Below, piece after piece: positions 48,653-49,573 of a DNA stretch of 64,000 nt; the first letter of the stretch is position 1; every line of letters starts with the position of its first letter. The translations under genes and the position numbers were made by a program. The stretch lies in assembly GCF_055900595.2 (NCBI RefSeq), contig NZ_CM148325.1. One strand, written 5' to 3'. The notes under the pieces were generated by a model. It was not told the DNA's origin. It worked only from the letters and a program-made list of their open reading frames with translations, and ran no database searches.

Positions 48653-49573
48653 TTAGTTAATTAGCTTATCAAGCTCAGCAAGAGGTAAATTTGCCATCTC
48701 TGCAACGTCTTCTCGAGACATCCCTTTACTCAAAAGACGCTGGGCGAATTCCTGCCTTTCCTCTTGTCTTGCCTCCTGTCTTCCCAGCTGAATCCCCTTC
48801 TCAATCCCTTTTTCAATTCCCTTCTCTTCAAACCACTGCGCCAACGTCATCATAGACTCCCCTCCCGTTTCCCTGTCTCTCAGCACACCATAAAACAAAT
48901 CCGCTTGTTCAGTATGACCGCGTTGCAGCATATAGTTTTGCATGGCAACTAACTGACTTCCGCTAGTGTACCCTTCGTCAATCAGCGTGACCAGTTGCTC
49001 CAGCAATAACATTAAGTCGCGCTGGCGAATATGTTTTTGCAGCAGTTCGAGAATCGCAATCCGCCGATGTTGCATGATTTCGTCATCCGGTGTGATAGTG
49101 ATATCCACCAGCGGGAAAGGACTGTTATAGACGCGTCGCGCCAGCTCCGGCGAGTAAAACATATCAAACCAGCACATTGAGAGCGGATAAGGTGTGGCCT
49201 CGCCCTGATAAAACAGAATCGGCACCACCAGCGGCAGCTTATCGTGATCTGCCTCCAGATGCCGGTGCATGGCAGCAATAGAATAACGCATCATGCGAAA
49301 CGCCATTTTTTTATCCGGCTTGCTTTGGTGTTCAATCACAACATGTAGATAGCCCGTATTACCCTGCATTTGCACGGAATAGAGCACGTCAGTGCTGTGC
49401 CCTTTCAGGCTTTCTTCAATAAAACTCCCCGACTCAAGATGCAGCGTGTCGAGATCACACAGTTCGCGTAGCTCCGCTGGCAAATGGATATCCAGAAAGT
49501 CGCGAGCCGTTTCCGCGTGCATTAAAAATTGTTTAAACACCGCATCATGCGGTGTGGTACTCGGTGCATCCAT
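48653..49573 (-). CDS. rpnC: Rpn-family recombination-promoting nuclease (PD-(D/E)XK, transposase_31-like)
   Basis: 306-aa ORF, MDAPSTTPHDAVFKQFLMHAETARDFLDIHLP; C-terminal GIEKGIEKGIQLG repeat; positional equivalent of yadD between panC and panD. Confidence 0.75.
   Translation of the reverse strand: MDAPSTTPHDAVFKQFLMHAETARDFLDIHLPAELRELCDLDTLHLESGSFIEESLKGHSTDVLYSVQMQGNTGYLHVVIEHQSKPDKKMAFRMMRYSIAAMHRHLEADHDKLPLVVPILFYQGEATPYPLSMCWFDMFYSPELARRVYNSPFPLVDITITPDDEIMQHRRIAILELLQKHIRQRDLMLLLEQLVTLIDEGYTSGSQLVAMQNYMLQRGHTEQADLFYGVLRDRETGGESMMTLAQWFEEKGIEKGIEKGIQLGRQEARQEERQEFAQRLLSKGMSREDVAEMANLPLAELDKLIN

Follow-up and report, generated by a model that had tools for sequence, protein, structure and literature searches.

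An Escherichia coli rpnC (yadD) allele with six repeat units as a probable gene-within-a-gene toxin–antitoxin system

The locus described here lies in a window of 64,000 nucleotides, the whole stretch of DNA that was analysed, and is very probably the chromosomal rpnC (yadD) of E. coli, a toxin–antitoxin system built as a gene within a gene (probability about 0.9, the behaviour of this allele being judged by analogy with K-12). For rpnC, the gene itself, the antitoxin inside it and the variable repeat are already known and are established rather than candidate elements (Zhong et al., 2023, PNAS, PMC10400941). According to the mechanism that follows from that work, the long product, RpnC_L, would be a PD-(D/E)XK DNA endonuclease whose action causes DNA damage and SOS induction. 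A shorter transcript, together with an internal ribosome-binding site, would direct the synthesis of RpnC_S, which corresponds to the last 66 residues in an unchanged reading frame. RpnC_S would act as a small helical oligomerisation domain that blocks the nuclease by pairing its long first helix with the same helix of RpnC_L. The 12-bp tandem repeats would encode four-residue units within this first helix, so that gain or loss of units alters the helix length and mutual neutralisation takes place only when toxin and antitoxin carry an equal number of units.

The same system, K-12 rpnC included, was the subject of the study by Zhong et al. (2023), in which the Rpn small proteins were described as antitoxins of the long toxic nucleases. 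Ribosome profiling with Onc112 or retapamulin gave an internal-start signal in all five K-12 rpn genes (rpnC in their Fig. 2D), differential RNA-seq (dRNA-seq) revealed in all K-12 rpn genes an internal transcription start that generates a short, more abundant transcript, and chromosomal SPA tagging detected both RpnC_S and RpnC_L in K-12. The insertion of one ‘KGIE’ in only one of the RpnC partners abolished neutralisation in a dinD-lacZ SOS assay, and insertion in both restored it; the published repeat test of RpnC covers the gain of one KGIE unit. In vitro inhibition of the nuclease and complex formation were reported for RpnA only (Zhong et al., 2023). In an earlier study, overexpression of rpnC lowered viability by 59%, induced the SOS response weakly and increased RecA-independent recombination 2.9-fold, and RpnC was the weakest toxin among the active K-12 paralogs (Kingston et al., 2017, PMC5350276). 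Most of the checks proposed in the initial annotation of the window had thus been published already, since start profiling in K-12, detection of RpnC_S and repeat-matched neutralisation are all reported (Zhong et al., 2023). Among the 25 results listed by a search of the literature from 2023 onward on RpnC/RpnS, the relevant items were the PNAS paper together with its preprint and one commentary, and the others were acronyms with unrelated meanings. As a discovery the locus carries little weight, since both the description and the testing of the system in rpnC itself date from 2023. It is nevertheless a textbook locus that automated annotation misses, as RefSeq gives the long product only and the PADLOC 2.0 models do not recognise rpnC. 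Further, the repeat-number specificity rule could be tested on the window allele, a natural variant with two extra units in a divergent lineage. The features discussed below are collected in Table 1.

Table 1. Features of the rpnC region, in positions of the window
Feature	Position	Strand	Basis or remark
panC	47581-48432	+	convergent with rpnC
ERIC (IRU) element, 129-bp imperfect palindrome	48436-48564	.	26-nt inverted arms 48436-48461 / 48539-48564
G+C-rich hairpin with a T-rich run after it, resembling a terminator of panC	48566..48588	+	conserved, every strain compared
rpnC (yadD) full-length CDS, RpnC_L, 306 aa	48653..49573	-	ORF; RefSeq annotation; TIGR01784
rpnC_S, in-frame internal ORF, 66 aa (65 aa from ATG-242), antitoxin	48653..48853	-	translation; K-12 ortholog detected (PMC10400941)
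Hypervariable six-unit stretch KGIE KGIE KGIQ LGRQ EARQ EERQ	48752..48823	-	two 12-bp tandem arrays
Shine-Dalgarno tract of the internal start, GGGAGGGGAG	48857..48866	-	read from sequence
Stretch of low synonymous variation, candidate region for the internal promoter, or for the 5′ leader, of rpnC_S mRNA	48914..48979	-	inferred, 12 alleles
Transposase_31 / YhgA-like nuclease domain, residues 7-207	48953..49555	-	Pfam PF04754, E=2e-87
panD	49847-50227	+	far side of rpnC from panC

The rpnC gene and its host

The product of rpnC had been assigned to the Rpn family of PD-(D/E)XK nucleases in the initial annotation, and the profile searches agree with this assignment. On the 306-aa protein, PF04754 scored 292.4 bits (cut-off 21) and NCBIfam TIGR01784, a model entitled ‘Rpn family recombination-promoting nuclease/putative transposase’, scored 292.1 bits (cut-off 52.1). 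As read from the translation, the domain contains D10, D62, E81, Q83 and R93 together with a PDDE motif, which match D11, D63, E82, Q84, R94 and D165 of RpnA at a constant offset of −1, a correspondence made without a computed alignment. In RpnA, mutation of D11, D63, E82 or Q84 abolishes activity, and R94 and the PDDE motif (D165) have also been mutated (Kingston et al., 2017). The likeness to RpnA_L/RpnA_S (yhgA), the member of the family known best from biochemistry and structure, covers the PF04754 nuclease domain, the active-site residues and the gene-within-gene layout. According to the predicted structure of RpnC_S, it would extend to the small C-terminal domain, which would have three helices, the first of them long. 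The tails of the two proteins, by contrast, have diverged so far that neither sequence nor Foldseek searches link one to the other.

The identical sequence is named rpnC in RefSeq (WP_032302396.1) on the chromosome of E. coli strain Z0117EC0005, to which positions 48433-49846 are 100% identical and in which the order of the genes is panB, panC, rpnC (opposite strand), panD and yadE. The position tail-to-tail with panC and inside the pan genes, also claimed beforehand, was borne out by the convergent panC on one flank and panD on the other. The gene occupies the same place between panC and panD in K-12 and in 10 other strains, the ortholog group being rpnC, and the insertion of rpnC between these two genes has been discussed previously (Kingston et al., 2017). 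The K-12 RpnC_L/RpnC_S pair is the closest comparison: an ortholog at panC-panD with equal domain content and an identical internal ribosome-binding site and ATG-ATG. Over the N-terminal 240 codons the DNA of the K-12 gene is 94.7% identical to that of the window. The differences lie in the tail, which in K-12 has four units (KGIE KGIQ QGRQ EVSQ) as opposed to the six of the window, in the length of the protein (300 aa in K-12, with two extra C-terminal residues that the 306-aa product lacks) and in the downstream spacer, where K-12 is without the 129-bp ERIC.

The locus is at least 99% identical in only 8 of about 5500 records. Across panB-panC (46700-48432) the identity to about 5300 of 5440 E. 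coli records is 90-95%, and across yadG-hpt (52000-55000) it is 95-99% to nearly all records and about 96% among the matches listed. Only 8-18 complete genomes are at least 99% identical across the panB-panC and yadG-hpt regions. Judged from these comparisons of sequence, the host belongs to a divergent lineage of E. coli. A recent import of rpnC, considered because of its divergence of ~5-7% from K-12, was dropped, because flanking and distant genes (panC 93.3%, panD 96.3%, yadG-hpt ~96%) are equally divergent and the whole lineage is therefore divergent. As a separate observation, panBC diverges more than the nearby housekeeping genes.

The internal start and the small protein

The initial annotation had pointed to an internal in-frame methionine that would open a reading frame of about 66 codons, and had mentioned reports that members of the family act as toxic nucleases under the control of a small protein translated in frame from the 3′ end of the gene. 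Exactly this reading frame is present (translated, MMTLAQWFEEKGIEKGIEKGIQLGRQEARQEERQEFAQRLLSKGMSREDVAEMANLPLAELDKLIN). It begins with two consecutive methionines, codons 241 and 242 of rpnC, with the ATG triplets at 48853-48851 and 48850-48848, and 7 nt separate the end of a GGAGG from ATG-241. Among the 29 in-frame ATG, GTG and TTG codons of rpnC, GGAGG is found upstream of two only, ATG-241 and ATG-242, which argues that the internal-start signal is not chance scatter. Each of the 12 rpnC alleles compared retains both ATGs and the ribosome-binding site, the latter reading GGAGGGAAG in three of them. The 230 nt around the internal start contain six differences from K-12, all of them outside the ribosome-binding site and the two ATGs. 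The internal start of the window is thus conserved from K-12, the strain in which RpnC_S has been demonstrated (Zhong et al., 2023).

The candidate promoter or leader listed in Table 1 came from the comparison of synonymous variation among the same 12 alleles, a small sample in which the sites are linked. Variable third codon positions number 58 of 154 in nt 1-462 of rpnC as against 10 of 88 in nt 463-726 (Fisher p=7e-6). Within the latter interval, nt 595-660, located 61-126 nt upstream of the internal start, contain one segregating site and no variable third codon position. When signals for expression are embedded in a coding sequence, synonymous variation is expected to fall in the overlying codons, and the drop upstream of the internal start suggests that promoter or leader signals for the short transcript are embedded there. 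A sigma-70 consensus scan of the minus strand upstream of 48853 returned no internal promoter and none in 48914-48979, and the best candidates found by manual inspection for an internal sigma-70 promoter match 8 of 12 positions.

The structure of RpnC_S was predicted with AlphaFold2 from 13 aligned tails. The model consists of a long helix (residues 4-42) followed by two short ones (47-54 and 58-65), with a mean pLDDT of 69. Such an arrangement of three helices with a long first helix agrees, at moderate model confidence, with the published description of the RpnA_S crystal structure, a three-helix dimerisation domain (Zhong et al., 2023). Against the PDB, phmmer found no match to full RpnC, and with the 66-aa RpnC_S it returned a designed repeat protein and chance matches, the RpnA_S structure not being recovered. 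A Foldseek search of the PDB with the RpnC_S model gave nothing with E below 5, a null result of little weight in either direction, given the small size, the helical character and the moderate confidence of the model. Both phmmer and Foldseek missed the RpnA_S entry, and the identity of the RpnC_S fold with that of RpnA_S is therefore putative.

The profile PF14261 (DUF4351) did not match the 66-aa RpnC_S at E<=0.01; the DUF4351 annotation of RpnS proteins is reported for some species only (Zhong et al., 2023). The last two helices (LLSKGMSREDVAEMANLPLAELDKLIN, residues ~37-66, 48653-48745 on the minus strand) have a weak likeness to resolvase-type helix-turn-helix models: HTH_7 scored 20.6 bits on the tail, under its cut-off of 23.8, and the PADLOC ‘putative invertase’ model matched with E=3e-6. 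They may represent a DNA-binding motif, either by descent or still in action. The invertase match, weak and confined to the tail, was the only one obtained by RpnC with the defence models of PADLOC 2.0, among which there is no Rpn model.

Repeat arrays, strain variation and rival readings

A tandem DNA repeat encoding GIEK units had been noticed in this region. A 12-bp array of that kind was indeed found, although the region holds two arrays and the RQEx type had gone unmentioned. Tandem Repeats Finder reported the first at 48791-48826 (12 bp, 3.0 copies, KGIE KGIE KGIQ) and the second, adjacent to it, at 48750-48782 (12 bp, 2.8 copies, RQEA/RQEE). The units begin at residue 11 of RpnC_S, as they do in K-12 RpnC_S and within the published range, according to which four-residue repeats start 8-20 residues past the internal methionine, in the long first helix (Zhong et al., 2023). 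The units differ from each other by synonymous changes (AAG GGA ATT GAA, AAA GGG ATT GAG and AAG GGG ATT CAG), and whereas the copies match at 79-80% in the DNA, the KGIE units are exact in the protein.

It had also been suggested that the number of repeats might vary, and variation among strains was found both in the 12 alleles compared and in a larger sample of genomes. The 12 alleles, from complete E. coli genomes, contain 0-4 units of the KGIE type and 1-7 of the RQEx type, and the length of the RpnC protein ranges in them from 290 to 316 aa. For the larger sample, a query of 211 nt was anchored in the conserved sequence flanking the repeats, which matched 5424 of 5426 E. coli genomes, and segment lengths were taken from 59 records evenly spaced down the match ranking. 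In these 59 genomes the anchored segment was 163, 175, 187, 211, 223, 235 or 247 nt long, in 12-nt steps only, a range of −48 to +36 nt relative to the window allele. The commonest length in the sample was 187 nt, the K-12 type, and the 211 nt of the window allele correspond to two units more than K-12. Slippage by 12 bp preserves the reading frame automatically and, therefore, the 12-nt steps alone are no proof of selection.

The RpnC_S domain also exists as free-standing genes, rpnC_Ss, whose products share 63% identity with the tail of the window and have four-residue repeats of their own. An rpnC_Ss gene of 59-71 aa is located between rpnC and the hairpin in 6 of 12 strains, one of them (L011) a partial pseudogene by annotation. 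The window has no counterpart, the spacer between panC and rpnC containing the ERIC instead, and a tblastn search for a second copy of the RpnC_S type found none in the 64 kb. In locus L009, the RpnC tail (410-1330) has four KGIE/KGME units and the downstream rpnC_Ss (144-341) has RQAV/RQEV units, so that antitoxin copies within a single locus can be unlike in the type as well as in the number of their repeats. The rpnC alleles of L007 (478-1428) and L012 (467-1357) end in ...LINSN, as do the free-standing rpnC_Ss of L003 and L009, and neither L007 nor L012 has a separate rpnC_Ss gene. From their sequences, these two alleles resemble products of a deletion that fused rpnC to rpnC_Ss, a kind of event that has been mentioned before (Zhong et al., 2023).

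Two other explanations of the locus were weighed. According to one of them, the C-terminal tail acts only within the full-length protein, for instance as a helix-turn-helix that selects the DNA target, and the double methionine is not used in this allele. A role of this kind draws on the proposal that the variable tail sets the DNA preference and on the lower activity of RpnD after truncation of its tail (Kingston et al., 2017), as well as on the weak likeness of the last two helices to HTH_7 (20.6 bits, cut-off 23.8) and to the PADLOC ‘putative invertase’ (E=3e-6). However, both the small protein and the ribosome signal at its start have been seen for K-12 rpnC (Zhong et al., 2023), whose start region is identical to that of the window, the GGAGG of the internal start is the only one in the gene and is kept in every allele compared, and in other strains the RpnC_S domain is also encoded by separate, free-standing rpnC_Ss genes. 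The two roles are, moreover, compatible, and we regard an exclusive role within the full-length protein as very unlikely.

Equally improbable is the view that rpnC is an eroded transposase or relic of a mobile element, functionless now, in which the variation of the repeat reflects neutral slippage. This view finds some ground in database names such as ‘putative transposase’ and ‘ISNCY family transposase’, in the consideration given to eroded mobile elements and to two independent panC-panD insertions (Kingston et al., 2017), and in the fact that slippage by 12 bp keeps the frame without selection. Against this view, rpnC is present at panC-panD in 5424 of 5426 complete E. coli genomes, as judged by the match of the 211-nt segment, and the reading frame of the window is intact with its catalytic residues present. 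In addition, the peptide period of the repeats is kept despite the synonymous differences between the units, a change in repeat number has a measured functional effect, and rpn genes do not encode conventional transposases (Zhong et al., 2023).

Returning to the gene-within-a-gene toxin–antitoxin reading, we infer by analogy that the six-unit allele acts like K-12 RpnC. Phage defence would likewise be a function of the chromosomal RpnC by analogy, in this case with the plasmid-borne RpnP2_LS, a relative of the same family with the same toxin and internal-antitoxin logic that protects against T-even phages and is the sole member with demonstrated phage defence. A further extension is speculative and, in our opinion, rather doubtful: the KGIE and RQEx arrays, varying independently, might together form a combinatorial pairing code that renders the RpnC pairs of different E. 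coli lineages non-cognate, such that the rare six-unit hybrid would escape the common four-unit RpnC_S, and 48914-48979 might be a promoter that sets the ratio of antitoxin to toxin.

The spacer between panC and rpnC

The 220-bp spacer between panC and rpnC is occupied by an ERIC element, whose presence beside panC had been noted at the outset and is corroborated by the palindrome and its core. The element is inserted at a TA between the stop codon of panC and the hairpin. At the centre of the palindrome (48478-48521) there are exact matches to the sequences of the primers ERIC1R and ERIC2. The element is a palindrome of the ~127-bp class with the conserved core, it is intergenic, and it is polymorphic for presence and absence: the empty site, TACTTA joined to ACTGGCGC, is found in K-12 and eight other strains, and the site is filled in the window and in an O157-type strain (strain 272, L005). 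Given its place between the stop codon of panC and the conserved hairpin, the ERIC is most likely part of the 3′ untranslated region of panC, and nothing here suggests a role of the element in the expression of rpnC. In the O157-type strain, the ERIC at the shared site (L005, 275-572) is longer and includes an internal insertion of ~78 nt with small palindromes of its own. A second, partial ERIC-like copy is located at 5854-5939 of the window, in the opposite orientation and with 85% identity over 86 nt to the element at 48436-48564.
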